A DNA stretch of 64,000 nucleotides from a virus (IMGVR_UViG_3300033273_000658:77006-141005); one strand, 5' to 3'. Shown: positions 5,137 through 27,460, numbered from the stretch's first letter. Notes: generated from the sequence alone by a model not told the origin. Program-made: numbers and translations.

Positions 5137-5400
5137 ATGGATTCAATGGATGTAAAATTGCCAACTGAAAAACAAGACTTAATTAGATTATACATTTATG
5201 TTAACCAAAGAATAAATGAGATCTGGAAAGAGTATGTTGTACACACCAATCTTAAATACGTTTCTGCAACAACAAAGATCTTTGCAATTATTTTTTGTGA
5301 AATGGATTTCTATGAATCTGTTCTAGCTAGAATAAGAGTTCATCTTTCCGAAGATGACATGCAAGAAATGAGAAAGCACGATGCAATTTGGGACTGGTGA
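5137..5400 (+). CDS. Hypothetical protein
   Basis: ORF track. Confidence 0.6.
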   Translation: MDSMDVKLPTEKQDLIRLYIYVNQRINEIWKEYVVHTNLKYVSATTKIFAIIFCEMDFYESVLARIRVHLSEDDMQEMRKHDAIWDW

Positions 5401-5575: not shown

Positions 5576-5659
5576 CTTTTTTTATCTAAGTTACATAAAA
5601 TTTTAACAAACTTCATAAAACATGTCAAACTTTTTATGTAACTTTCTTAAAATTGTCTC

Positions 5660-5677
5660 TTGCAAGAATCATGCCAA
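5660..5677 (-). promoter_or_regulatory. sigma54 -24/-12 site
   Basis: Reverse complement TTGGCATGATTCTTGCAA (GG-N10-GC). Confidence 0.8.
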
Positions 5678-5744
5678 AAATGTTTTACATAACTCAGACA
5701 CTGAAATCGTGGCTGCAACTACCTTTAAGGTTGTTTTTGGATCA

Positions 5745-5762
5745 TTGCAAGAACCATGCCAA
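5745..5762 (-). promoter_or_regulatory. sigma54 -24/-12 site
   Basis: Reverse complement TTGGCATGGTTCTTGCAA. Confidence 0.8.
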
Positions 5763-5832
5763 ACTTTTTTTACATAACTTTGAACCATTTTAAGCAAGTT
5801 ACATAAAATTTTAACAAACTTCATAAAATGAC

Positions 5833-5850
5833 TTGCAAGAATCGTGCCAA
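5833..5850 (-). promoter_or_regulatory. sigma54 -24/-12 site
   Basis: Reverse complement TTGGCACGATTCTTGCAA, perfect TGGCACG-N4-TTGCA. Confidence 0.85.
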
Positions 5851-5993
5851 TTTTTATTTACATAACTCAGGCATCGAAAACAGCTCTACGAGCTTCCAAA
5901 GGCCAGATCGCTTAACTTTACTATGAAGTTACATAAAATTTTAACAAACTTCATAAACTTTAACAAACTTCATAAAAAAAGTGAAGAAAAAGT

Positions 5994-6024
5994 TTGACAA
6001 GGTTATTTTGCTGGGTTAATGAAT
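5994..6024 (+). promoter_or_regulatory. First early promoter (imperfect -10)
   Basis: A-rich UP-like tract, TTGACA-N17-TAATGA. Confidence 0.5.
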
Positions 6025-14794: not shown

Positions 14795-14825
14795 ATAAAC
14801 ACTAACCCAAACAAACGGAGTGACC

Positions 14826-15329
14826 ATGAACGCACTAACCAAAAGACAAAACGAAGTCTACAACGACATAATAGATTTTATCATTCACAATCATAGATCC
14901 CCTAGTTATCGTGAGCTAGGTGATAGACTTGGAATTAAAAGCACAAATGGTGTCTTTGACCATGTAAAGGTTCTTAAACAGAAAGGCCTTTTAAGAAATG
15001 AAACAAAGATAACACCTGTTTCTATGCCTAAAAAACAAACAACTAGTGTTTCTCCGTCATGTATTGGGTTAAACAAGACTCAAAAACTACTATTATTCAC
15101 AAGATTATTGACAAAGATAGGTTCAATGCCAAAAGATGAAATCTTATCTAAGTATGGAATCTGCGAAAGAACTTGGAGACGTTGGAAAAAAGATATGCAT
15201 GGAGCCGGTATTGCTGTTTATACATGGCGATGTAAAAAAACAAAGACCTCCTTGGTGGGTACACCCCATGCCTATGTCCAAGCTATGATTGATGAAATGA
15301 ATGAAAAATTAAACAAAAGGAGTAAATAA
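14826..15329 (+). CDS. LexA-type DNA-binding domain fused to a second HTH-like domain; no S24 peptidase domain
   Basis: LTKRQNEVY..I..F....RSPSYRELGDRLGIKSTNGVFDHVKVLKQKG; C-terminal ILSKYGICERTWRRW. Confidence 0.8.
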   Translation: MNALTKRQNEVYNDIIDFIIHNHRSPSYRELGDRLGIKSTNGVFDHVKVLKQKGLLRNETKITPVSMPKKQTTSVSPSCIGLNKTQKLLLFTRLLTKIGSMPKDEILSKYGICERTWRRWKKDMHGAGIAVYTWRCKKTKTSLVGTPHAYVQAMIDEMNEKLNKRSK

Positions 15330-15921: not shown

Positions 15922-16983
15922 ATGGCTATTGACTTCAAAACATTCTCTAACGTAATCAACCCTATCCTTAACGCAAAGTTCCCTGTCCTCGTTCGTGGTC
16001 GGCACGGTATCGGTAAATCTACCATCGTTTACCAAAAAGCCAAAGAACTCGGTCTGCCTGTCGTAGAGCGTAGAGCATCCCAAATGACTGAGGGGGACTT
16101 GCTTGGCTTGCCAAAGCAATCAGACAATGATGTAACTGAGTGGTGTCCACCAAAGTGGTTCAAGACTGCTTGTGATACCCCTGTTGTCCTCTTCCTTGAT
16201 GAAGTAGACCGTGCAACACTTGAAGTCCGTCAAGGTATCTTTGAACTATGCGATAGCCGTAAGATTGCCGGTCGCAGTCTTCATCCCGACACCCTTATCT
16301 TTGCTTGTGTCAATGGCGGAGAACATGGTTCTCAATACCAAGTAGGTGAGATGGATCCCGCAGAACTTGACCGCTACACTGTCTTTGACGTAGAACCTAC
16401 GGTAGAAGATTGGCTTAACTGGGCAAAGGGTAATGTTGCCCAAGAAATCTGGGATTTCATCAATCAGAACCACAATCATCTTGAACACAATGATGACTAC
16501 GAGCCTAACAAGGTTTACCCATCAAGACGTTCTTGGGAACGACTATCCACGACTTTGTCTGGAATGGGCGATCAGATTGAGGGTTCATCTGTAACCTACC
16601 ATATCGCTTGCTCTTTCATTGGCTTTGAGGGTGCAGTGGCATTCAAAGACTTCCTTGACAAATACGATCGTCAAGTCACCATCGAAGATCTTCTAGATGA
16701 TGGTAAGTTTGACAAGATCAAAGGTTGGAAAATCAACGATCACAATGCCATGGTCGAAAAGATGAAAGCAAAGAACATCTTTGCAGACCGTCTATCCGAC
16801 ACACGTCTTGATAACCTTGCAAAGTACTTCTTGCAACTTCCATCCGAGATTGTCATGGTTCTATGGCAGTCCATGGCTCAGACCGATGAGTCTACCTACA
16901 ACATCGCTAAACTTTGGGCAATCGAAGTGGATGGTACATCTATTCAAGACTATGTTGTCGGTATCCTCAACGCAGGAAACTAA
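15922..16983 (+). CDS. MoxR-like AAA+ ATPase
   Basis: Walker A GRHGIGKS, Walker B LFLDEVDRA, MDPAELDRY, PSRRSWE. Confidence 0.92.
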   Translation: MAIDFKTFSNVINPILNAKFPVLVRGRHGIGKSTIVYQKAKELGLPVVERRASQMTEGDLLGLPKQSDNDVTEWCPPKWFKTACDTPVVLFLDEVDRATLEVRQGIFELCDSRKIAGRSLHPDTLIFACVNGGEHGSQYQVGEMDPAELDRYTVFDVEPTVEDWLNWAKGNVAQEIWDFINQNHNHLEHNDDYEPNKVYPSRRSWERLSTTLSGMGDQIEGSSVTYHIACSFIGFEGAVAFKDFLDKYDRQVTIEDLLDDGKFDKIKGWKINDHNAMVEKMKAKNIFADRLSDTRLDNLAKYFLQLPSEIVMVLWQSMAQTDESTYNIAKLWAIEVDGTSIQDYVVGILNAGN

Positions 16984-17039
16984 GCCACAAAGGCTTTGGC
17001 TCCTTGTGCCTTGAAACAAGGAGACTATAATCCCTTTCT

Positions 17040-17390
17040 ATGGAGATACCCATGAGAATACACAAAGGTACATTCAAGATACGAGAACATGATGATGGTG
17101 AACGAAAGTGGTCTTATTACGATGGATCGTATGGCAACGACTTCCCTTTCTATGTTCATCGTAAAGAGAACGAAAAGTGGTGGACTTTATCTCACATGTC
17201 TACTGGCTACATGATAAAGAAGAACCTATCACTGAAAGAGGCAAGGCGATTGTGCAAGGCTCTCAAAGAGTGGCCTTTGTTCCTAATGCCTACTGCTGAG
17301 ACTTTGAACCATCAAAAGTCTTTACTACCAACCTACAAACAACAACTACTTAACAACATTGTACACAATGCAGGAGAAACCAATGAGTAA
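17040..17390 (+). CDS. Hypothetical protein
   Basis: ORF track. Confidence 0.7.
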   Translation: MEIPMRIHKGTFKIREHDDGERKWSYYDGSYGNDFPFYVHRKENEKWWTLSHMSTGYMIKKNLSLKEARRLCKALKEWPLFLMPTAETLNHQKSLLPTYKQQLLNNIVHNAGETNE

Positions 17391-17589
17391 TAACGAGATC
17401 AACATTACACTGAACATATCAGACGAACTACTATCCAAGCTAATCATGGCTATGCAACCACAAAGCAACTCCATGGGAATACCCTTGCAAGCTCTCATGG
17501 GTATGGCTATGCCACCACAAGCACTTCCCAAGGCAGAAAAGCCCAAGAAGAAAGCACCTATGGGTTTCAAAACAGGGAGCGCAGAATGA
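17383..17589 (+). CDS. Hypothetical protein
   Basis: AGGAG RBS; ends KKAPMGFK. Confidence 0.65.
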   Translation: MSNNEINITLNISDELLSKLIMAMQPQSNSMGIPLQALMGMAMPPQALPKAEKPKKKAPMGFKTGSAE

Positions 17590-17828
17590 GCAGACCAAAA
17601 TTGCAGTATAGCAACATAACGTACTACGCAATACAAAGGCAAAAGCTGGAGTTTCCACCAGAACTTGAAGAGTTATCTGAACCTTTGGAAGTCAAGTCAT
17701 TGGCTCAAAAGATAGAGGAAGCGCACACAAACCTAGATAGAATAGAATTTTCAAAAAAAAACTTGACAATTCCTATCGAACAGAATAATAGTAAATTATC
17801 ACCCCAACAAGGAGATTCCAATGAGTGA
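17586..17828 (+). CDS. Hypothetical protein
   Basis: Coupled ORF. Confidence 0.5.
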   Translation: MSRPKLQYSNITYYAIQRQKLEFPPELEELSEPLEVKSLAQKIEEAHTNLDRIEFSKKNLTIPIEQNNSKLSPQQGDSNE

Positions 17829-19059
17829 TAACGAAACAACAGAAAAGTTTGACTTGAACATGCACACTTTCCGTTTGCTACAACAAGAACCGTTCTTCGC
17901 AAGTCTTTCAAGACGTATTCACAAAGCACCATCCAAGCACATTCCAACTGCTGGTGTCCGTATCAATCCACAGTCAGCACAGTTTGAGATGCTTTACAAT
18001 CCAGAGTTCATGGCAAGTCTTACAGACAAGCAAAAGCTTGGTGTTCTAATGCACGAGTTTTACCACATCATCTTTGAGCACGTCACCACACGACTTCCAG
18101 CAGAGGGTATGTCTATGAAGTGGAACGTTGCAACAGACCTTGCAATCAACAGTCACATCATGGACATGTTGCCGGAGGGTGGATGTATCCCATCAAAGGT
18201 TGGCACTCCGTTTGAGAACTATCCTGTCGGTCTATCTGCTGAGGCTTATCTAAAGATAATCGAAGAAGATGAGCAGTTCAAGAAAGACGATGGTCAAGGC
18301 CAAGGTGACGGTCAAGGTGGTCAAGGTGACGGAGATCCATCACAAGGGCAAGGCCAAGGTTCATCGCTGGGCGATCATGTTCTTGACGATCATAGTGGCT
18401 GGGGCGATGTAGATGAAGAGACAAAGGCTATGGCCAAAGAGCGTTTGAAAGACGCTATGGAGAAAGCCGCAAAGGATGCGTCAAGCGGTCAAGGCTGGGG
18501 TTCTGTATCGGCAGACGTTCGTAAGCAGATCATGGACGCTATCACACCGAAGATTGACTGGCGCAAGGTTCTTCGATACTTCATCAAGACCTCACAGCGT
18601 AGCAACAAGCGATCAACCGTTCGCAGATTGAACCGTAGGTTCCCTTACATTCATGCTGGCCGAAAGGTTACACGTCAAGCCAAGATTGCTATCAGCATTG
18701 ACCAATCGGGTTCTGTTTCAGACACCATGCTTGCCTCATTCTTCGCAGAACTCAATAGCCTATCAAGCCTTGCCGAGTTTACCGTTGTGCCTTTCGATAC
18801 CGAAGTAGATGAGAGCCTTGTCTACACATGGAAGAAAGGTGAGCGCAAGACATGGGAGCGTGTCAAGTGTGGTGGCACATGCTTTGACGCTCCGACACGA
18901 TACGTCAATGAGAACGGTTTCGATGGTCACATCATCTTGACTGACATGGAGGCTCCAAAGCCGATAGCCAGCAAGTGCCAACGCATGTGGATGACTGACC
19001 AACGAGGCAAGGAGAACCCTTACTTCACAACCAATGAACGTGTCATAGCGATAGACTAG
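17821..19059 (+). CDS. DUF2201-type protein: HExxH metallopeptidase-like domain plus vWA-like domain
   Basis: HEFYH, WNVATDLAIN, GQ-rich linker, IDQSGS MIDAS, GGT, ILTD. Confidence 0.9.
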   Translation: MSDNETTEKFDLNMHTFRLLQQEPFFASLSRRIHKAPSKHIPTAGVRINPQSAQFEMLYNPEFMASLTDKQKLGVLMHEFYHIIFEHVTTRLPAEGMSMKWNVATDLAINSHIMDMLPEGGCIPSKVGTPFENYPVGLSAEAYLKIIEEDEQFKKDDGQGQGDGQGGQGDGDPSQGQGQGSSLGDHVLDDHSGWGDVDEETKAMAKERLKDAMEKAAKDASSGQGWGSVSADVRKQIMDAITPKIDWRKVLRYFIKTSQRSNKRSTVRRLNRRFPYIHAGRKVTRQAKIAISIDQSGSVSDTMLASFFAELNSLSSLAEFTVVPFDTEVDESLVYTWKKGERKTWERVKCGGTCFDAPTRYVNENGFDGHIILTDMEAPKPIASKCQRMWMTDQRGKENPYFTTNERVIAID

Positions 19060-19067
19060 GTGATAAC

Positions 19068-19250
19068 ATGATAGGGATGTTGTATAGAACGAAACACAGC
19101 AAACACATATATGCTTGCATAAGCATAGACTATGCACACATCCCCTACTTCACCATGGTCTGTATAACAGACGGAGACACATGGGTAGTCAAGGGATTGA
19201 GAGAGCTAGATAGATACTTTGAACCCCTAACAACACCGGAGGAAGAATGA
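19068..19250 (+). CDS. Small protein, MIGxL(Y/W) family
   Basis: MIGMLYRT. Confidence 0.65.
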   Translation: MIGMLYRTKHSKHIYACISIDYAHIPYFTMVCITDGDTWVVKGLRELDRYFEPLTTPEEE

Positions 19251-19441
19251 TTGGTACACTATGGAGATTCAACGAAACCGGCAAGGTATACATTCTCAAA
19301 GAGAAGTATACCACAAGACAAGGGAATGAATACTGCGTATTCATACAGCCATGTGGCAACCATGTAACACTTCGTGACTACTTTATCAAGAAAACTATGA
19401 CTAAGATAACCTACTCTACCCCTACCAAGGAGAAACCATGA
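19247..19441 (+). CDS. Small protein, MIGTLW family
   Basis: MIGTLWRF...GKVYILKEKY...LRDYF. Confidence 0.7.
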   Translation: MIGTLWRFNETGKVYILKEKYTTRQGNEYCVFIQPCGNHVTLRDYFIKKTMTKITYSTPTKEKP

Positions 19442-19602
19442 TCGGTACACTATGGAAATGTCGAAAAGGCAAGGTTTACATTCTCAAAGACAAATACTAT
19501 ACAACAGGTGGGGCACTATACTATGTGTTCACGACACCCAGCCTAGGCCATGTGAGACTTCGTGATTTCTTTGTAGAGAGATCTATGACCAAGATAGCCT
19601 AA
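19438..19602 (+). CDS. Small protein, tandem paralog of 19247-19441
   Basis: MIGTLWKC...GKVYILKDKY...LRDFF. Confidence 0.7.
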   Translation: MIGTLWKCRKGKVYILKDKYYTTGGALYYVFTTPSLGHVRLRDFFVERSMTKIA

Positions 19603-19643
19603 CCTACTACCCTACTACCCCACCCCCAACCAAAGGAGAAACT

Positions 19644-19814
19644 ATGGTCGGAACACTATGGAAGAGCGAGAGTGGTATAGCAGTATGCACTGCATGCAAA
19701 GATGGGTTCTACACACTGAGATACCTTGACGCTCCCGATTGCTTTGCTCACATAAGCGAGAGCAGTCTACACTTCTACTACACACAACTCACACAACCAC
19801 AGGAGGAAACATGA
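19644..19814 (+). CDS. Small protein, MVGTLW family
   Basis: AGGAG RBS, MVGTLWKS. Confidence 0.6.
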   Translation: MVGTLWKSESGIAVCTACKDGFYTLRYLDAPDCFAHISESSLHFYYTQLTQPQEET

Positions 19815-19957
19815 GTAAACCTAAGCACACGATGGACAAAGTAACCATCACAACACGTACCAACACAGGAACACAAGTGCGTGTCCTGTCTCCAAAGGAG
19901 ATCAAGCGCACAACCAAGTACAACACCTTTCACTACGGAGGCAAGGATGGAGGATAA
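19811..19957 (+). CDS. Small basic protein
   Basis: AGGAGG RBS. Confidence 0.6.
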   Translation: MSKPKHTMDKVTITTRTNTGTQVRVLSPKEIKRTTKYNTFHYGGKDGG

Positions 19958-20195
19958 AACTGCAATCACTATCAAAGCAGTCAAAGAGGCTCTAGACTTC
20001 ATAGAGAATCTATGGGGCAATTGGGATGGAGATCTTCATGACTTCGTTGCGAACGTCATAAGTGAAGATACTGTTACACAGTATGACGTGCAACACCTTT
20101 TGGATGCTCTCTCCAAAGGAGAGCATGTGGATGGGATTGAGACTCTCTATGTCAATAAACGAGGTTCAAAGTACCAAATCAAAATCAAACGGTGA
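19947..20195 (+). CDS. Hypothetical protein
   Basis: GGAGG RBS. Confidence 0.65.
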   Translation: MEDKTAITIKAVKEALDFIENLWGNWDGDLHDFVANVISEDTVTQYDVQHLLDALSKGEHVDGIETLYVNKRGSKYQIKIKR

Positions 20196-20236
20196 ATGAG
20201 GTAATGTAAGGGGCAGTTTCAGAGTAGAGGCACCTC

Positions 20237-20272
20237 TTGCAATTTCCATGCCAAAAAAATTTTACGTAACTC
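20237..20272 (-). promoter_or_regulatory. sigma54 site plus TTACGTAACTC composite element (array 2, single copy)
   Basis: TTGCAATTTCCATGCCAA-N7-TTACGTAACTC. Confidence 0.8.
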
Positions 20273-20317
20273 AGACCAGCTCACAACCATCCCCTAAGGG
20301 GATGAAAAAAACTTTCA

Positions 20318-20385
20318 CTTTTTTCTTGACAACCTTTTCTGAACCCTATAAGAGTATTGTACCAACCCAAACCGATGGAAACAAA
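20318..20385 (+). repeat. Promoter-leader-RBS cassette repeated near 21210, 21830 and 22290
   Basis: CTTTTTTCTTGACAACCTTTTCTGAACCCTATAAGAGTATTRTACCAACCCAAACCGATGGARACA. Confidence 0.85.
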
Positions 20386-20610
20386 ATGAACAAGATCATT
20401 TACTTCTACACAATCTACTGGAAATCATTTCCAACTCAGTACAGACCATCCGAGATAGAATCACTGAGTATAGCTTATTCCGAGAACAACGTACCAAAGG
20501 ATAGATTCGATCATCATGATGCTGTTTTGGATTATCTTATAGATACCAATCCAAACCCCTTTGAGTCAGTGCCAGAATTTATCATCATCAAGACCACAAC
20601 AGAACAATAG
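20386..20610 (+). CDS. Hypothetical protein
   Basis: Start follows the cassette RBS. Confidence 0.65.
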   Translation: MNKIIYFYTIYWKSFPTQYRPSEIESLSIAYSENNVPKDRFDHHDAVLDYLIDTNPNPFESVPEFIIIKTTTEQ

Positions 20611-20618
20611 GAGACACC

Positions 20619-20843
20619 ATGAAGTTCCAACCAACAATCCTTATAGACAACGACCTCTACATCAAGATCGAAAAAGGGGAAGTAAAACTTCAATGTGGCC
20701 AATGGATACAACTTGAATGGTGTGATAAACCATCACGATGGGTTGGACTTACCAAAGCCAGAACTTTATGGGCAGTTCACTATCCAGTCAAGATGAACCA
20801 GTTCAAAACATTGTGCAAGAACATAAACCGATTCCAATCATAA
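20619..20843 (+). CDS. Hypothetical protein
   Basis: AGGAG RBS. Confidence 0.7.
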   Translation: MKFQPTILIDNDLYIKIEKGEVKLQCGQWIQLEWCDKPSRWVGLTKARTLWAVHYPVKMNQFKTLCKNINRFQS

Positions 20844-21011
20844 TAGGAGACAACCATGAACAAAACTGAAATGTATAGACAACAACTTCGTCAACTTCGT
20901 AGCAACTTCTATGCTAAAGACAAGCCCACTTTTCAAGAAATGATGGAGTTTGCACAAGAAGAAATCTACCTTGTAAAGAAGATGAACGGAAAGTTTTAAT
21001 AGGAGACAACC

Positions 21012-21194
21012 ATGAACAACAAAATGCCTTTATCCTCCATCTTTGATGGGAAAGACCACGAAACCTTTGTATCCATCAATCTTGCCTTGCAAGCTCTAAA
21101 CATGGACGGAGTACCATCTGAATTACGAGAGATTACCGAACAAGCTCTTGTGGAATTGCTAAAAGCCAGTTTTGACATGAACAATTGCAACTGA
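21012..21194 (+). CDS. Hypothetical protein
   Basis: AGGAG RBS. Confidence 0.65.
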   Translation: MNNKMPLSSIFDGKDHETFVSINLALQALNMDGVPSELREITEQALVELLKASFDMNNCN

Positions 21195-21277
21195 GAAATT
21201 TATTTTCAACTTTTTTCTTGACAACCTTTTCTGAACCCTATAAGAGTATTATACCAACCCAAACCGATGGAGACATC

Positions 21278-21532
21278 ATGTCAAAAATGATACAACTTGA
21301 ACCACCCTTTGATAAAGAAATGCCTACCTTTGATGCAATCATGATTGCCGAGGGTGTTGTGCAAGCCGAGAGCAGAGAACAATACATCCAAGCATGGCAA
21401 GTACTCATCGACACTGGCATGGCCTATCAGCTACAAGGATGGTTCCATAGAACGGCAGATGCTCTTATAGAGAACGGTCACTGCACACCACGAAAGACAC
21501 AACAAGCCAACAACCAAACATACTCATGCTAA
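21278..21532 (+). CDS. Hypothetical phage protein
   Basis: AWQVLIDTGMAYQLQGWFHRTADALIENG. Confidence 0.7.
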   Translation: MSKMIQLEPPFDKEMPTFDAIMIAEGVVQAESREQYIQAWQVLIDTGMAYQLQGWFHRTADALIENGHCTPRKTQQANNQTYSC

Positions 21533-21708
21533 TAATGGAGAACATCATGATTTATTTCGTAGACTACACATACAACACAACAGGCGCAAACTTTGGAGCG
21601 CAGTACGGTTTCATGCGAATCAAAGCAACATCCAAAGCAGACGCAATCACCAAAGCTAAAAAGCAAGCCCCACGCAACGCAAAAGGCTTCAAGGCTACAC
21701 CTGTATAA
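21526..21708 (+). CDS. Hypothetical protein
   Basis: ORF track; true start may be slightly downstream. Confidence 0.55.
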   Translation: MLIMENIMIYFVDYTYNTTGANFGAQYGFMRIKATSKADAITKAKKQAPRNAKGFKATPV

Positions 21709-21896
21709 CGGAGACACACATGAATGAAACAGAAGTATTCCTTGCACTCCTTTTCTTATGGGCAACCTTTCTTCTCTTCTCATTGGGCATTGTACCTACA
21801 TAATCAAAGCCTTATAAAAAAATTCAACTTTTTTTCTTGACAACCTTTTCTGAACCCCTTATATAATAAACACCAACCCAAACTGATGGAGACAAC

Positions 21897-22280
21897 ATGT
21901 CACTCATTCTACAACAAAACAAACAAGAAATCAAAGACTTCTGCCTTGACCGACTTCGTGAGCTATCAATCTACATGGGCAATCAAGACTTCCGAGATGC
22001 TTATGTTTCTGACCTGCATGACGACATCTTTAACCGAGACTATTACATCATTGGTCACTACCAAGCTAAACAATGGATGGGGGATTCTGCTTTCGATATG
22101 ATCGGAGACGTTGTAGAGTATGAGCGAGACAACTTCGGAGAAGTCCATACAGACCTTTCTTCTCCCGAAAGCGTTGTGAACATGTGGGTTTATGTGGAGG
22201 GATGGAACATCATTCATAAGTGTTATGAAGCTGTTGTGATGGAGTTGGGTGATGAGCAATGCCAATTGGATGTGACATAA
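21897..22280 (+). CDS. Acidic early protein, possible Ocr-like DNA mimic
   Basis: DLHDDIFNRDYYIIGHYQAKQWM...EYERDNFGE; has its own early promoter; function is inference. Confidence 0.5.
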   Translation: MSLILQQNKQEIKDFCLDRLRELSIYMGNQDFRDAYVSDLHDDIFNRDYYIIGHYQAKQWMGDSAFDMIGDVVEYERDNFGEVHTDLSSPESVVNMWVYVEGWNIIHKCYEAVVMELGDEQCQLDVT

Positions 22281-22356
22281 AATCTCATCTTTTTTCTTGA
22301 CAAAGTAAACCGAACCCTATAAGAGTATTATACCAACCCAAACCGATGGAGACATC

Positions 22357-22644
22357 ATGAACAACTATCTTGACCTTGCACTACAAGCCTACCGTAACGG
22401 AACCATGGACACCCGATACGAATACTTCGCAGAAGTAGCTACCCTTGCGAAATTGTATAAAGACTTGCATACGCTTTACTTTGAGATTGATGAACTGCAA
22501 GAAGAGAAGAATCCCGATGGTTCCTATGTGGACAACACCGAAGAGCTGGAGCGCATGAGACAAGCGTATCGCAACACCCAAGAAATGCTCCATGCCTATG
22601 AAGAATACGCAATCCCCCTCATCTGCAAGCAGGTGTTGAAATGA
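22357..22644 (+). CDS. Hypothetical acidic protein
   Basis: Follows promoter cassette at 22297. Confidence 0.75.
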   Translation: MNNYLDLALQAYRNGTMDTRYEYFAEVATLAKLYKDLHTLYFEIDELQEEKNPDGSYVDNTEELERMRQAYRNTQEMLHAYEEYAIPLICKQVLK

Positions 22645-22787
22645 GCGACAAAGACTTGAACGCCCTTGCAATAATGATCCTTGTCCTTGCCCTACCTTTT
22701 ATCCTATGCTAACATTCATCATCATCCAACTAACCGTATCAATCACCTACTCATACTTGACCATCTACCTGAACAATCGGAGACCAC

Positions 22788-22976
22788 ATGAAAAATAAAT
22801 CTTTTAATACTCTTGAATCTGCCTATAAGTACTACGATGTTGTATCTCAGAACTATGTAGCTTTCCTTATACTCAATAGAGAAGAAGACAAGTACGAAGT
22901 AATCAATCAAGACTTGTATGACCACTACGCTTTTGAGTTTGATCTTGACATGGTTATCATGGACTTTGTCTGCTAG
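22788..22976 (+). CDS. Hypothetical protein
   Basis: GGAG RBS. Confidence 0.6.
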   Translation: MKNKSFNTLESAYKYYDVVSQNYVAFLILNREEDKYEVINQDLYDHYAFEFDLDMVIMDFVC

Positions 22977-23040
22977 GCTACTCCCCTCTACCGTACTACC
23001 CCCCTACCCTACCCCCCTACCTAACCGACCGGAGATTTAC

Positions 23041-23283
23041 ATGAACACTCAATCCACCCTCACACAAATTATCGATAGAACCCTTGCACTCATTGACAAC
23101 GGACTTGAACGCTCCGTAGGAGACATGCGCCTTATGGACGCTCTTGAGCTTGTGGGTGTCCTCATGGACATACGTGAACGTCAGCTCGTATACGATAATG
23201 AGCGCAGTGTTTCCGAGCCTATTCCATCATGCAGAAAGGCATGTATGAAAAAGCCCAAATGCAAAGGTACAGATGGGCTATAA
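23041..23283 (+). CDS. Hypothetical protein
   Basis: GGAG RBS after a C-rich tract. Confidence 0.6.
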   Translation: MNTQSTLTQIIDRTLALIDNGLERSVGDMRLMDALELVGVLMDIRERQLVYDNERSVSEPIPSCRKACMKKPKCKGTDGL

Positions 23284-23487
23284 AACGGAGGAAATAAACT
23301 TTATGAAAGTATTGTTTTGTGGCGTGTTATGGATGTATTGAAATTTTCCTTTATTGTCGGGAGTATCTGAGCTAAAACAGCTCCTAAGCACACCACCCAC
23401 TACTAAGTAGTACCCCCAAAACTAAAACGCCTTTTTTCCCCGAAACTTTTGAAATAGGGGAATCTTTTTTTTGCCCAAAATCTAATT

Positions 23488-23506
23488 GAAAATGAGAATC
23501 ATTATC
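23488..23506. promoter_or_regulatory. Fur box
   Basis: GAAAATGAGAATCATTATC, 17/19 match to GATAATGATAATCATTATC. Confidence 0.75.
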
Positions 23507-23514
23507 AAAATGCG

Positions 23515-23660
23515 CCTTGCAATTTCCGTGCCAAAACTTCTTTACATAACTCCGAGCCGATTGTCCTTGCAATTTCCGTGCCAAAACTTCTTTACATAAC
23601 TCCGAGATCACCCGAAAATACCCCTTGCAAAAAGCGTGCCAAAAAAATTTCACATAACTC
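23515..23660 (-). repeat. Operator array 3: three sigma54 composite elements
   Basis: Sites at 23517, 23567, 23625; exact 42-bp direct repeat 23515-23556 / 23565-23606. Confidence 0.9.
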
Positions 23661-23729
23661 AAAACAGCTTTCCAGATAGCTGGGATTAAGGTGGCTCCCG
23701 TAGGGAGATAAAAAAAATGAAAAAAAAGT

Positions 23730-23759
23730 TTGACACCAGAAACACCATCGGATAGAAGT
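23730..23759 (+). promoter_or_regulatory. Promoter downstream of array 3
   Basis: A-tract UP element, TTGACA-N17-TAGAAG. Confidence 0.55.
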
Positions 23760-23811
23760 AAGTATCGGCTTTTTTCGATGGTCGAATTTTCACATCCCTT
23801 TCGGAGCTATC

Positions 23812-24111
23812 ATGCCCTACTACGCTTTCTTCCACTGTTCCCACTGCAATTGCCTCCTCCCAGAACATGATCAATCCTTTGGATTCTACCGAGACGATAA
23901 CGACAAAGCAGTTTGTTTACGTTGCTTCAGCTCTCTTGATGGAGAACTACCTGTCGATGTACAACAAGCATTTGAGGCTATCATAGAGCGTATGGATGAG
24001 TATCACGAGACCTTTCGTGGAGCTATGGTTCATGTGTCCTATGAGTATGGTACAAATGAGACGCACCACCAACAGCTTTGGGCTATGTACCGAGATCTAT
24101 ACAAGTCCTAA
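23812..24111 (+). CDS. Small zinc-finger-like protein
   Basis: CSHC...CLRC. Confidence 0.65.
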   Translation: MPYYAFFHCSHCNCLLPEHDQSFGFYRDDNDKAVCLRCFSSLDGELPVDVQQAFEAIIERMDEYHETFRGAMVHVSYEYGTNETHHQQLWAMYRDLYKS

Positions 24112-24340
24112 AAACCGGCCTTTGAAGGCCCTTCCTTTAACATCCAACCCCTAGCGAGATAAACTCATGATGTACAATAATCACTTCAATCCGTTCCCCT
24201 ATCTAATCATTGCAATCTATACCTCCCTAATCTTCATTGGCCTTGCAGGGTTCTATCAGAACATAGCACACCCAAAACCCTTGCCAAAGGTAGAGATTCC
24301 CCACAATGAAGTCGAAATCACATTTATTTCAAAATAATTC

Positions 24341-24369
24341 TTGACACCACCAAAATAACCCAGTATACT
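24341..24369 (+). promoter_or_regulatory. sigma70 promoter
   Basis: TTGACA-N17-TATACT. Confidence 0.8.
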
Positions 24370-24395
24370 GTATAGAGACGATAACGATTGAGATA

Positions 24396-24803
24396 ATGAG
24401 TTTCAAGACTGCTGAATCGATCCGAAGTCTCTCCAACCCCTCCCAAATAGGAAACCCCATGCCACGTTACTTTTCTTGCTCTTGCCACCTCAACACCGAA
24501 ACCACTTGCCGACACGATAGAGATCCTTTCAATGCTCTCCGTATGAGAACCGACTGGACTGTAGCTGACTTCGATGGTCTCAGCTCAAAAGAAGTCCAAG
24601 CTATCAATGAGTCCAATGCACGATACAACCAGCTTGCAGAAGAGATTGAGGAGATGAACATCTCCATAGCTATGCGCCAGATGGACGATGGAACCTACAA
24701 CAAAAAACCACGTAGAACCAAGCGTATCAAACGCGTCTCTCTCTCAGAAGAACAACAAGCCGAGATTATCGCAGATCTCAAAGAGGACGGCTACGAAGTG
24801 TAG
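24396..24803 (+). CDS. Hypothetical protein
   Basis: ORF downstream of promoter; start uncertain. Confidence 0.7.
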   Translation: MSFKTAESIRSLSNPSQIGNPMPRYFSCSCHLNTETTCRHDRDPFNALRMRTDWTVADFDGLSSKEVQAINESNARYNQLAEEIEEMNISIAMRQMDDGTYNKKPRRTKRIKRVSLSEEQQAEIIADLKEDGYEV

Positions 24804-24868
24804 CCAACTCTTCTACCCTACTACATACCACCCTACTACCCTACTACCCCACCCCCAAGGACATACCC

Positions 24869-25258
24869 ATGAGCACATCTAACGCTAACAACGAGACCAC
24901 TATTAACCCCTCTTCTCTTCCAACTGCTGAATACCTCTATGCTCGCAACCCTGCTCTCCGAGACTCCAAAAACACCATCTCATACACGCAGTTCGATAAA
25001 ATCGTGCGCTCAATAGAGCCAAGCGCATACCAGCAATTACGCCTCATAGAGCTATGTGAGATGTACAACGCTCTCACACGTGAGCAACAGGTAGCACAGG
25101 ATGAGCCACACTTAAGCGCAGAAGATGACTTTGCAATCTTTACAGATCAAAACGGGTTTACTATCATTCAGCATGAACCAACCTTTATCAAGTTTAAGCT
25201 TATGGGCTATGAGAGTGTCGAAATGAAACGGCCGAGAAGACTCTCAATCATACTCTAA
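24869..25258 (+). CDS. Hypothetical protein
   Basis: AAGGA RBS after a C-rich tract. Confidence 0.7.
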   Translation: MSTSNANNETTINPSSLPTAEYLYARNPALRDSKNTISYTQFDKIVRSIEPSAYQQLRLIELCEMYNALTREQQVAQDEPHLSAEDDFAIFTDQNGFTIIQHEPTFIKFKLMGYESVEMKRPRRLSIIL

Positions 25259-25289
25259 GTTTTTGGAGTTTGCCAGAAGAACCATTTCA

Positions 25290-25495
25290 TTTTGAGAATG
25301 GTTCTCATTTTTTTAGCTCGGTCATTTTGAGAATCATTCTCAATTTCAGTTTTTGGCATGAGCTTTGCAATATTGCAAGAAGTGTGCCAAACTTTTTTGA
25401 CATAACTCAGACCGTTTTTCTCTTGCAAAAACCGTGCCAAAAAAAATTGTCATAACTCAAATGGCCTAGCTGGCCATTTGAGAATCATTCTCATT
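25290..25495. repeat. Operator array 4: three Fur-type 7-1-7 boxes and three sigma54 sites (one +, two -)
   Basis: TGAGAAT-N-RTTCTCA at 25293, 25328, 25479; sigma54 at 25353(+), 25373(-), 25423(-). Confidence 0.9.
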
Positions 25496-25527
25496 TAGAA
25501 AAAAATGAAAAAAAGTGAAAAAAAAGT

Positions 25528-25556
25528 TTGACATAGCAAAATGAGTCGGGTATTAT
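25528..25556 (+). promoter_or_regulatory. sigma70 promoter downstream of array 4
   Basis: A-tract UP element, TTGACA-N17-TATTAT. Confidence 0.8.
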
Positions 25557-25663
25557 AGAGTATGCCTTTTTTGAGGCTGTCGCTCTTTTACATCCCCAAT
25601 AACAAATCTTCCTCTCCGTGGCTGTTCATGGAGAGAGACAAACTTCTTTATATGGAGCCAACC

Positions 25664-26089
25664 ATGGCAACAATCATTCTCAATTCTCTTAATCTCCTCA
25701 CAAAAATCATCAATCAAGGTGCTTTTGCAACTGACGCTATCGCAGAAGTCCAGAACACCTATGGTCTTGATCAAGAGCAGGTCGATACCGTACTCATGGA
25801 GTACAACATCAATCAGATGCGTTCCCAGCGTTCTCAGCTCACACTGACTGTCTGCTTAAAGAACGCATCCAGCGTAGAGATTCCTCTTACTCAGGCCCAG
25901 TTCGATCTGCTCATGGCGCAGTTCAATACTGGGGATGCAAAGGATCCCTATGGGAATCTCATTGTGAGAAGTGTAGAGATCACTGACAACAAGCGTATCC
26001 GTCAGCATGGTTATGCACCCGATGGAAACACAGGTTACAACTGGGGTTATGCATCCACAGGACGCTTGTCACATCCCAGTGATGAATAA
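25664..26089 (+). CDS. Hypothetical protein
   Basis: GGAG RBS before ATG 25664. Confidence 0.75.
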   Translation: MATIILNSLNLLTKIINQGAFATDAIAEVQNTYGLDQEQVDTVLMEYNINQMRSQRSQLTLTVCLKNASSVEIPLTQAQFDLLMAQFNTGDAKDPYGNLIVRSVEITDNKRIRQHGYAPDGNTGYNWGYASTGRLSHPSDE

Positions 26090-26113
26090 ACATCCACCCA
26101 ATCACCCAAAACA

Positions 26114-26129
26114 GGGGGCGCAAGCCCCC
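26114..26129. other. GC-rich hairpin with GCAA tetraloop
   Basis: GGGGGC-GCAA-GCCCCC; no U-tract on the + strand. Confidence 0.55.
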
Positions 26130-26325
26130 AAGGAGCTTGTATGAGCCGTTTAATGAATCTTGCACACCTTGGAAATCCACTTGTAAAATGCACAAAATGT
26201 GGATTCCAATACCCCAAACTTGGAAAGTGGTCAATTGCCACCCATCAATGTACAGGAAAGAAAAAATGAGACTAGATCACTTCGTCATCAAACCACCCAC
26301 AACCAACCTTTATAGAGGAGCCACC

Positions 26326-26703
26326 ATGGCCATTTCAAACACACCCAAAACCAACACCCAAACCATCACAACAGGAGCCACCATGGCACACTATCCACAA
26401 AACACCCCATCTGTAACCCAGTCACGAGGCTTTGAGTCGTCACACATGACTTGGGTTCGCACACAACAAACTGGATCGGATCTTGTATACGGTCGTATTC
26501 GTGACACCGGAGCCAACTACATTGTAGAGGGTTATCGATCTGGTGTATGGGTTGCGATCCCTTGCAAGAATCTCCCAAGTGCACAGCTTCTTCTTGGTGG
26601 TGTCATGCCAAAGGCAACACACAAACGAGAAAAGGCGCACTATGACTTTCAGAAAGCCCATGTAGAGCTATACGCATGGTGGAAAGACCACAGCATTGTA
26701 TAA
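26326..26703 (+). CDS. Hypothetical protein with two in-frame starts (26326, 26383)
   Basis: AGGAGCCACCATGGC is present before both starts. Confidence 0.65.
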   Translation: MAISNTPKTNTQTITTGATMAHYPQNTPSVTQSRGFESSHMTWVRTQQTGSDLVYGRIRDTGANYIVEGYRSGVWVAIPCKNLPSAQLLLGGVMPKATHKREKAHYDFQKAHVELYAWWKDHSIV

Positions 26704-26778
26704 CTCTTCCAGTGCTCTAGCCGTGGCATAAAACGGCCTACTACCCCACCCCCGTACCCCCACAAACAGGAGACATCC

Positions 26779-27138
26779 ATGTCACACGAGACACCCGAAA
26801 CCAACCCCACAACCCCACAAAACACTACCACCAAGAAAGTTCTTTACATTGCTCATTTATGCCCATACGACATGGCTCAGTATGGATATGGAACCACACA
26901 TCGCTTTTCAGATCGGGAGGAGTTTGAGGCTTTCCGAGCCTCCAAAGGCTCTCGTTGTGATGACTACAGTCGTTGGATCTACCATGTGCGCACCATCTTT
27001 AATCGAATCGAAGAAGGATACGATGTAGACTCGTGGTATTTCGACTATGGTGTCAATAATGACGGTTCAGTTTCAAAAACCCCATACGGACATTGGAACC
27101 AGTACCATGCAGATTTCAAGAGCTTTCCCGAAATCTAG
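26779..27138 (+). CDS. Hypothetical protein
   Basis: AGGAG RBS after a C-rich tract. Confidence 0.7.
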   Translation: MSHETPETNPTTPQNTTTKKVLYIAHLCPYDMAQYGYGTTHRFSDREEFEAFRASKGSRCDDYSRWIYHVRTIFNRIEEGYDVDSWYFDYGVNNDGSVSKTPYGHWNQYHADFKSFPEI

Positions 27139-27139
27139 T

Positions 27140-27460
27140 CACGTCAAGTCTTGACGTAACAACATGAGCCGAAATTTTCGGCTCTTTTTTTTGAGCTTGA
27201 TCATTTTGAGAATCATTCTCAATTTCTGTTTTAACAAATTTCATAAAATTTTATGCAAGTTAGATAAAAATCCTCTTGCAATAACCGTGCCAAACTTTCT
27301 TTACGTAACTCCAAAAATCTTGCATGCAAGAAGTGTGCCAAAAAAACTTTACGTAACTCAAACCGGATAGCTGAAAATCCTCTTGCAAGAAGTGTGCCAA
27401 ACTTTCTTTACGTAACTCAAAACACATAGCTGAGCATTTTTGAAAATCTTCTCATTTAGA
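27140..27460. repeat. Operator array 5: palindrome, Fur-type box, TTTAACAAA-TTCATAAAA motif and three sigma54 composite elements
   Basis: ACGTCAAG-T-CTTGACGT 27141; TGAGAATCATTCTCA 27207; motif 27230; sigma54 (-) at 27276, 27324, 27383. Confidence 0.9.

Follow-up and report, generated by a model that had tools for sequence, protein, structure and literature searches.

Sigma-54-type composite sites on the non-coding strand of a distant T4-like phage: candidate antisense promoters that share a box with sigma-70 promoters

What use can a virus whose genes nearly all read in one direction make of a dozen promoter-like sites for the bacterial sigma factor sigma-54 (RpoN) that face the opposite way? 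This question is raised by a stretch of viral DNA of 64,000 nucleotides (IMGVR_UViG_3300033273_000658:77006-141005; below, the window, in whose coordinates positions are given), in which the motif TTGGCAYR-N4-TTGCA recurs on the minus strand in a fixed register with a second motif, here called the box. The window forms the final 64 kb of an IMG/VR virus record of 141 kb (G000, estimated completeness 78%), which codes for terminase, portal, major head protein, tail sheath, DNA polymerase and ribonucleotide reductase. With terminase and capsid proteins that share 45–48% identity with their counterparts in Flavobacterium phage immuto and Microcystis phage Mel-JY01, the virus is a distant T4-like myovirus. 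Open reading frames (ORFs) of at least 100 amino acids lie on the plus strand nearly throughout the whole record. At least 14 plus-strand promoters composed of an A-tract, TTGACA, 16–18 bp and TAnnnT were found in the phage, and Shine-Dalgarno sites are present at the genes inspected, which indicates that the host uses classical sigma-70 promoters.

The motif occurs 13 times in the window, 12 times on the minus strand and once on the plus strand, whereas shuffled sequences gave 0.40 matches on average and 3 at most. All 12 minus-strand sites listed in an earlier sequence-only reading were recovered, their coordinates being right within 1 bp, and no additional sigma-54-type sites were found in the other 77 kb of the record. 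In every one of the 12 copies the box, (G/A)AGTTAYGT(A/C/G)A, ends exactly 7 bp before TTGGCA, and the general minus-strand reading of the 36-bp element is (G)AGTTAYGTAA-N7-TTGGCAYR-N4-TTGCA(AG). The copies are gathered in five intergenic islands (Table 1) with a tandem spacing of sites of 48–88 bp. The attribution to sigma-54 proposed in the same reading was supported: the sites match the extended RpoN consensus TTGGCACG-N4-TTGCA at every specified position (12 on the minus strand vs 0.4 expected), and GG and GC placed 10 bp apart within TGGCAC-N5-TTGCW were found in 12/12 composites of the window and in 52/52 copies of the clade described below. Interpretation of the plus strand as a promoter of sigma-70, of an extracytoplasmic-function (ECF) sigma factor or of a single-subunit polymerase was rejected on inspection, since the spacings misfit and bipartite conservation with variable spacers is unlike such promoters.

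The composite is not confined to this virus. Among 13 related viral contigs, 52 distinct copies were counted, and both spacings are constant in all of them, while the spacer sequences differ (25 different box-to-site, or N7, spacers and 12 different inner spacers). When gaps of 2–14 bp were permitted in a scan of viral contigs, only a gap of 7 was returned within the clade; the single match with another gap (11 bp, contig L177) belongs to an unrelated contig and looks like chance. The N4 and N7 bases had been thought to vary freely. Their sequences do vary, but N7 is constrained, being A/T-rich with A as the first base and T as the last. When island 1 of four independent relatives is aligned, the composites show 86% pairwise identity vs 62% for the rest of the island, and the neighbouring genes 65–66%; the match to the RpoN consensus stays perfect in divergent relatives. 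Because the composites outlast drifting spacers and flanks, it may be concluded that purifying selection acts on the two motifs and on the two spacings, and the earlier suggestion of selection on geometry rather than simple duplication is thus borne out. The cultured distant relatives (immuto, Mel-JY01 and LR756508) contain zero composite or sigma-54 sites. A search of candidate host genomes for the same composite, which had been recommended, brought little: the exact pattern gave only two loose matches among 185,579 bacterial and archaeal species genomes. Both look like chance and neither contains a sigma-54 site by the stricter pattern, and a host origin of the composite was rejected.

The sites are strictly polar. 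They lie opposite the gene strand in 12 of 13 cases in G000, in 10/10 in its relative G001 (about 75–88% identical to G000 over aligned stretches), in 7/7 in G009 and in 3/3 in other contigs; the sole plus-strand site of the window has no counterpart in G001, where that strand holds no site at all. Substitutions in relatives fall at third codon positions of the plus-strand ORFs adjoining islands 1–4; therefore, these plus-strand genes are real and what lies downstream of the composites is their antisense strand. This agrees with the earlier statement that no credible minus-strand gene follows any copy. A coding or RNA target on the minus strand was rejected, since the codon-phase substitution patterns fit plus-strand ORFs only and no Rfam or tRNA match was obtained. 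Folding of the predicted minus-strand leaders returned only strand-symmetric palindromes (terminators and Fur boxes). Consequently, the gene or defined RNA that follows a sigma-54 promoter on its own strand is missing here, and what is found instead is the arrangement of cis-antisense promoters, which stand opposite overlapping genes and are conserved in relatives.

The box is one strong half of the palindrome AGTTAC|GTAACT, and its dyad is centred near -38.5 relative to the predicted sigma-54 start. It had been taken for the site of a partner specific to sigma-54, an opinion that does not hold, because the same box accompanies sigma-70 promoters. Downstream of the three composites of island 1, on the same strand, stands a promoter of sigma-70 type with boxes in either orientation around it; its counterpart in G001 and G002 is TTGACA-17-TATAAT, and the promoter with its boxes is 83% conserved. 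In addition, a 14-nt version of the box, AGTTACATAAAATT, occupies the -35/-10 spacer of the plus-strand clpP promoter 6.8 kb upstream, which heads the clpP-groEL-protease gene block that island 1 ends; the arrangement is identical in G001. Since it is shared in this way, the box looks like the operator of a putative general regulator that also controls sigma-70 promoters, not of a sigma-54-specific one. Other phage lineages with sigma-54 arrays do not have it.

Two observations were made on DNA around these boxes. Shortly before the window lies the clpP promoter (TTGACA-17-TATACT; genome 75828-75890, L020:15828-15890). A hairpin with a T-run comes within about 15 nt after it, the ribosome-binding site follows them, and this order is kept in G001; the structure resembles a leader or attenuator. 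On the plus strand, exact copies of a 32-bp repeat, AAGTTACATAAAATTTTAACAAACTTCATAAA, lie in between the composites of island 1 (5588-5619, 5796-5827 and 5926-5957); the repeat includes the box and, on the minus strand, the -10 element TAAAAT, and a partial copy is present near 27230.

The islands have a common plan. Read rightwards on the plus strand, a typical one consists of the terminator of the previous operon, a Fur-type box, the minus-strand composites, a short GC-rich hairpin, a second Fur-type box and an A-tract with a TTGACA promoter, although not all islands hold all six. Plus-strand terminators are evident before islands 3–5 and marginal or absent at islands 1–2, A-tract TTGACA promoters follow all five islands (TTTGCA at island 5), and a Fur-type box precedes the composites at islands 3–5, with a second box at island 4 and a degenerate copy at island 5. 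This plan is that of the PeSL (promoter-early stem-loop) cassettes of T4-like phages with some parts added; PeSLs are intergenic repeats, found where small ORFs vary, that combine a terminator stem-loop with an early sigma-70 promoter and coincide with rearrangement points between relatives (PMC2839356, PMC4122927). Here, too, a terminator stem-loop and an early sigma-70 promoter lie between small variable ORFs, and from G000 to G001 the islands change in number and the genes around island 4 in order, the changes falling at the islands. However, the terminator and the sense promoter do not explain the whole repeat, as the antisense composites are its best conserved part, and the described PeSLs are without a sigma-54 element, a second operator or an antisense-directed component.

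Near-perfect Fur-type 7-1-7 boxes (TGAGAATnATT(C/A)TCA) were found at six positions, 23493, 25293, 25328, 25479, 27207 and 28948, and five of the six are within islands 3–5; the remainder of the 141-kb record has only weaker ones (2 mismatches, one with 1). Hexamer-repeat versions of these boxes adjoin the arrays of G001.

In our opinion, which is tentative, the composites are antisense promoters that depend on host sigma-54 and are gated by a factor bound to the box. Each copy would be an RpoN promoter of the -24/-12 type, bound by the host holoenzyme, in fixed register with the operator of a sequence-specific and probably dimeric regulator, perhaps encoded by the phage. The modules lie at the 3' ends of plus-strand early operons, past the terminators and before the next plus-strand sigma-70 promoter, and point back into the operons. 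They would fire once the box factor allows it and an AAA+ activator of the host works on them, either from solution or from a site that escaped recognition; transcription of the non-coding strand would then produce antisense RNA and head-on interference, and the operon on the left would be turned down. Antisense transcription leads among the readings because of the strict polarity, the co-oriented and box-flanked sigma-70 promoter, the sense bias of arrays elsewhere (see below) and the conservation at the level of motifs. A pure binding site needs no polarity, which favours promoters, and the box-flanked minus-strand sigma-70 promoter of island 1 indicates that the minus strand is really transcribed and that the same regulator controls this. 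The reading is further supported by the consensus match of the sites, by the box in the spacer of the clpP promoter and by precedents in YuA and LUZ19-type phages (see below).

Several facts weigh against these antisense promoters. In arrays spaced at 48–59 bp, each next box falls, by our count, near +5 to +15 of the promoter upstream, where a bound factor would get in the way of the upstream copies, and of the two face-to-face sites 25353 and 25374 at most one can be productive. No minus-strand terminator or conserved RNA structure was found that would define the transcript. No RpoN, enhancer-binding ATPase or GAFTGA motif was found in the 141-kb record or its relatives, and no enhancer site or palindrome was recognised besides the Fur-type boxes. 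Finally, both rpoN in the host and minus-strand transcription are presumed.

The strongest competitor supposes docking instead of transcription: sigma-54 holoenzyme would form stable closed complexes on the sites, which the box factor might lock, and these would serve either as a sink that takes up the host's sigma-54 polymerase or as an insulator or roadblock separating the early operons. It is known that sigma-54 holoenzyme can rest inactive on DNA (PMC4591121), and this idea would account for the lack of an activator or enhancer site, the close packing of copies with one pair face-to-face, and the location of the islands between plus-strand terminators and the next plus-strand promoter, together with Fur-type boxes, that is, the sites of another host regulator. 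Yet a sink would not need strict polarity throughout the clade and would tie up core polymerase needed by the phage. The conserved sigma-70 promoter, which shares its strand and boxes with the composites, and the sense orientation prevailing in arrays of other phages also disagree with docking, and E. coli sigma-54 bound inside genes left the expression of overlapping genes unaffected (PMC4591121). On balance we consider docking unlikely, though worth keeping in mind. The composites might also persist as parts of PeSL-like repeated cassettes that serve as recombination points and shuffle genes, with a sigma-54 element of little present function. The layout of the islands, repeated in a variable region of small ORFs (PMC4122927), and the differences between G000 and G001 exactly at the islands agree with this, but recombination homology would keep whole stretches and not just motifs and spacings amid drifting spacers and flanks; nor does it explain a consensus match that is perfect in divergent relatives. 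Although improbable in this form, a cassette role is compatible with antisense promoters as an added one.

Two further explanations concern what reads the sites and what the transcripts are for. TTGGCAYR-N4-TTGCA could be read by another phage or host protein, its resemblance to sigma-54 sites being coincidental. As already said, sigma-54 of the host is presumed and no activator was found; besides, Mel-JY01, among the closest cultured relatives by terminase, is without any such sites and infects a cyanobacterium, and we know of no sigma-54 in cyanobacteria. Against a coincidence stands a match of 13 specified positions (11 fixed bases, one Y and one R) that includes GG-N10-GC, and a conserved bacterial factor fits better than a lineage-specific phage protein because the motif recurs in viral contigs with GC contents from 33% to 61%; such a coincidence appears very improbable. 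The least probable explanation is that the promoters prime or activate DNA replication, like T4 origins with an R-loop-forming promoter transcript. It would suit a T4-like phage with several dispersed islands, A/T-rich DNA downstream of the arrays and transcripts without a coding target, but no unwinding element or origin signature was identified, nothing ties the islands to replication, and cumulative GC skew has its extremes at about 13 kb and 30 kb, neither of which matches an individual island.

The box factor may activate, clamp or repress the holoenzyme. As a rule, sigma-54 promoters work with an AAA+ enhancer-binding activator, usually at sites 80–150 bp upstream, and their need for a distant enhancer is considered strict. 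The phage sites share with bacterial RpoN promoters TGGCAC-N5-TTGCW with its GG/GC distance, and a stable closed complex is expected on them, but they differ in their tandem order on the non-coding strand, in the second site near -38.5 and in that no enhancer site, activator gene or downstream gene was recognised. The sequence-only reading had proposed that a partner at this place contacts the holoenzyme directly. Of this proposal, the composite with its fixed register is real, the box is a general operator, and direct contact is a possibility. It seems quite unlikely to us that a factor bound there touches the closed complex and either opens it without a conventional AAA+ enhancer-binding protein or locks it.

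The search for the proteins involved extended to both partners. The activator domain was also not found in G001, G008 and G009, and neither MotA nor AsiA of T4 was found in G000. The only PF00158 match, weak and below the cut-off, is a MoxR-type ATPase paired with a von Willebrand factor A (VWA) protein and was rejected as an activator. A host-encoded activator is possible and compatible with these results. The activator of the phage sites would have to be supplied by the host and to work in the absence of any recognisable enhancer, as activator variants that have no DNA-binding domain do. For the box factor no candidate emerged. About 50 early ORFs were scanned against Pfam and PHROG, and the only transcription regulator found was a LexA-domain protein (14820-15329), which was rejected as the box binder, as it has no nucleotide match in G001, which keeps the boxes. 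Likewise rejected was an ORFan of 87 amino acids (5137-5400) that adjoins island 1 in 9 related contigs and evolves fast (28–78% identity): its confident model (predicted local distance difference test, pLDDT, 83) is a two-helix hairpin, there is no helix-turn-helix, and no significant match was found in PDB. In an informal comparison, none of the IHF, Fis, TyrR, NtcA, ArcA and OmpR-type consensus sequences fitted the box well.

As to activators, those of PspF type are released by membrane stress. The site 5661-5677, TTGGCATGATTCTTGCA, and the sigma-54 site of E. coli pspG, TTGGCATGATTCTTGTA (PMC4591121), differ in a single base; the similarity may be coincidental, or a PspF-type activator may be a candidate trigger. 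The MoxR-type AAA ATPase mentioned above forms, together with a DUF2201 metallopeptidase/VWA protein, a pair (15922-19059) in the operon ending at island 2, and a homologue of the VWA protein lies upstream of the same island in G009.

Table 1. Composites, islands and accompanying features, in window coordinates
Feature	Position	Strand	Remarks
Island 1	5661-5868		3 copies
Island 2	20238-20272		1 copy
Island 3	23518-23660		3 copies
Island 4	25374-25458		2 copies; additionally holds the sole plus-strand sigma-54 site
Island 5	27277-27418		3 copies
Composite 1, island 1	5661..5695	-	sigma-54 site 5661-5677, box 5685-5695
Composite 2, island 1	5746..5780	-	box starts AAGTTATGTAA
Composite 3, island 1	5834..5868	-	
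Composite 4, island 2	20238..20272	-	single copy; kept in G001 and G009
Composite 5, island 3	23518..23552	-	
Composite 6, island 3	23568..23602	-	identical to composite 5; recent duplication
Composite 7, island 3	23626..23660	-	box variant GAGTTATGTGA
Composite 8, island 4	25374..25408	-	box variant GAGTTATGTCA
Composite 9, island 4	25424..25458	-	box variant GAGTTATGACA
Composite 10, island 5	27277..27311	-	
Composite 11, island 5	27325..27359	-	
Composite 12, island 5	27384..27418	-	
Sole plus-strand sigma-54 site	25353..25369	+	without box; faces composite 8, -12 elements 4 bp apart
Box as oligonucleotide sequence			AGTTACGTAACT
Sigma-70-type promoter TTGACA-17-TAAAAT	5600..5628	-	downstream of the three composites of island 1, same strand
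Box-only copy AGTTACATAA	5634-5643	-	5 nt upstream of the sigma-70 -35
Box-only copy TTATGTAACT	5589-5598	-	over the sigma-70 start region
Box-only copy AGTTATGTAA	5568-5577	-	attached to a decayed sigma-54 site
-35 hexamer TTGACA, early-type sigma-70 promoter	5994..5999	+	A-tract upstream; far side of island 1
Equivalent -35 hexamers	20326, 23730, 25528, 27500	+	
Terminator hairpin then T-run	23438..23460	+	just before island 3
Equivalent terminators	25278-25305, 27166-27184	+	no T-run on the minus strand in any terminator

The composite is a combination of known kinds of elements, namely a sigma-54 promoter, an operator and a phage antisense promoter. The use of sigma-54 by phages has been described as rare (PMC5053324). 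As summarised in PMC5053324 and PMC10914365, development of Pseudomonas phage YuA depends on host sigma-54 (Ceyssens et al. 2008, cited in both), and a sigma-54-like promoter of this phage was mapped by start-site sequencing. YuA resembles the present case as a lytic phage using host sigma-54, but it is a siphovirus unrelated to the T4-like clade, and its promoter is assumed to drive phage genes in the sense direction. The antisense promoter of LUZ19/phiKMV-type phages likewise stands opposite all genes and is conserved in relatives, and blocking of sense transcription was proposed for it (PMC10914365); it differs in being read by a phage single-subunit RNA polymerase and in its single copy without a companion operator. 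What is seen here is a clade of large marine-type phages with about a dozen perfect sigma-54 sites, each at an invariant distance from a second operator. If these sites are active, they would represent a phage gene-shutoff device made of host sigma-54 polymerase and antisense transcription, and should the box factor touch the holoenzyme, sigma-54 would be controlled in a new way, by a private phage switch operated from a promoter-proximal site. At 36 bp, the element is small enough to be assayed directly for binding and transcription with E. coli components.

Tandem consensus sigma-54 sites were also found in more than 119 other viral contigs, with GC contents of 33%–61%, while about 0.02 are expected by chance according to our estimate. 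The arrays point into same-strand ORFs in 50 cases and into opposite-strand ORFs in 8, and 41 are ambiguous. This preponderance of sense over antisense suggests that phage sigma-54 arrays generally act as promoters, among which the T4-like clade with antisense composites is an unusual case. No paper on tandem sigma-54 sites in viral contigs was found in literature searches, and arrays of this kind in phages are apparently a wider phenomenon, so far undescribed; as they occur in more than 100 unrelated viral contigs, one tractable example would open a wider question.

Some of these contigs have features of their own. In the 223-kb contig L098 a different companion motif, GGGCAAAAC-N13-TTGGCA, apparently lies at a fixed distance upstream of the sigma-54 sites, and in L118 another one, ACTTTACATTCG, apparently abuts the sigma-54 site directly; composite sigma-54 sites may be a recurring theme across phage lineages. 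In an unrelated phage context, three viral contigs of about 11 kb (L054, L106 and L128) carry consensus sigma-54 sites in the inverted terminal repeats of small linear genomes, and these sites point inwards from both ends.

The base composition of part of the window is unusual. At about 19000-27000, the home of nine minus-strand composites, GC at third codon positions is 0.47 vs 0.22–0.42 elsewhere, and third-position GC skew is -0.24. A foreign source of this DNA or a distinct mutational regime, such as one set by frequent transcription of the minus strand, could be the cause.

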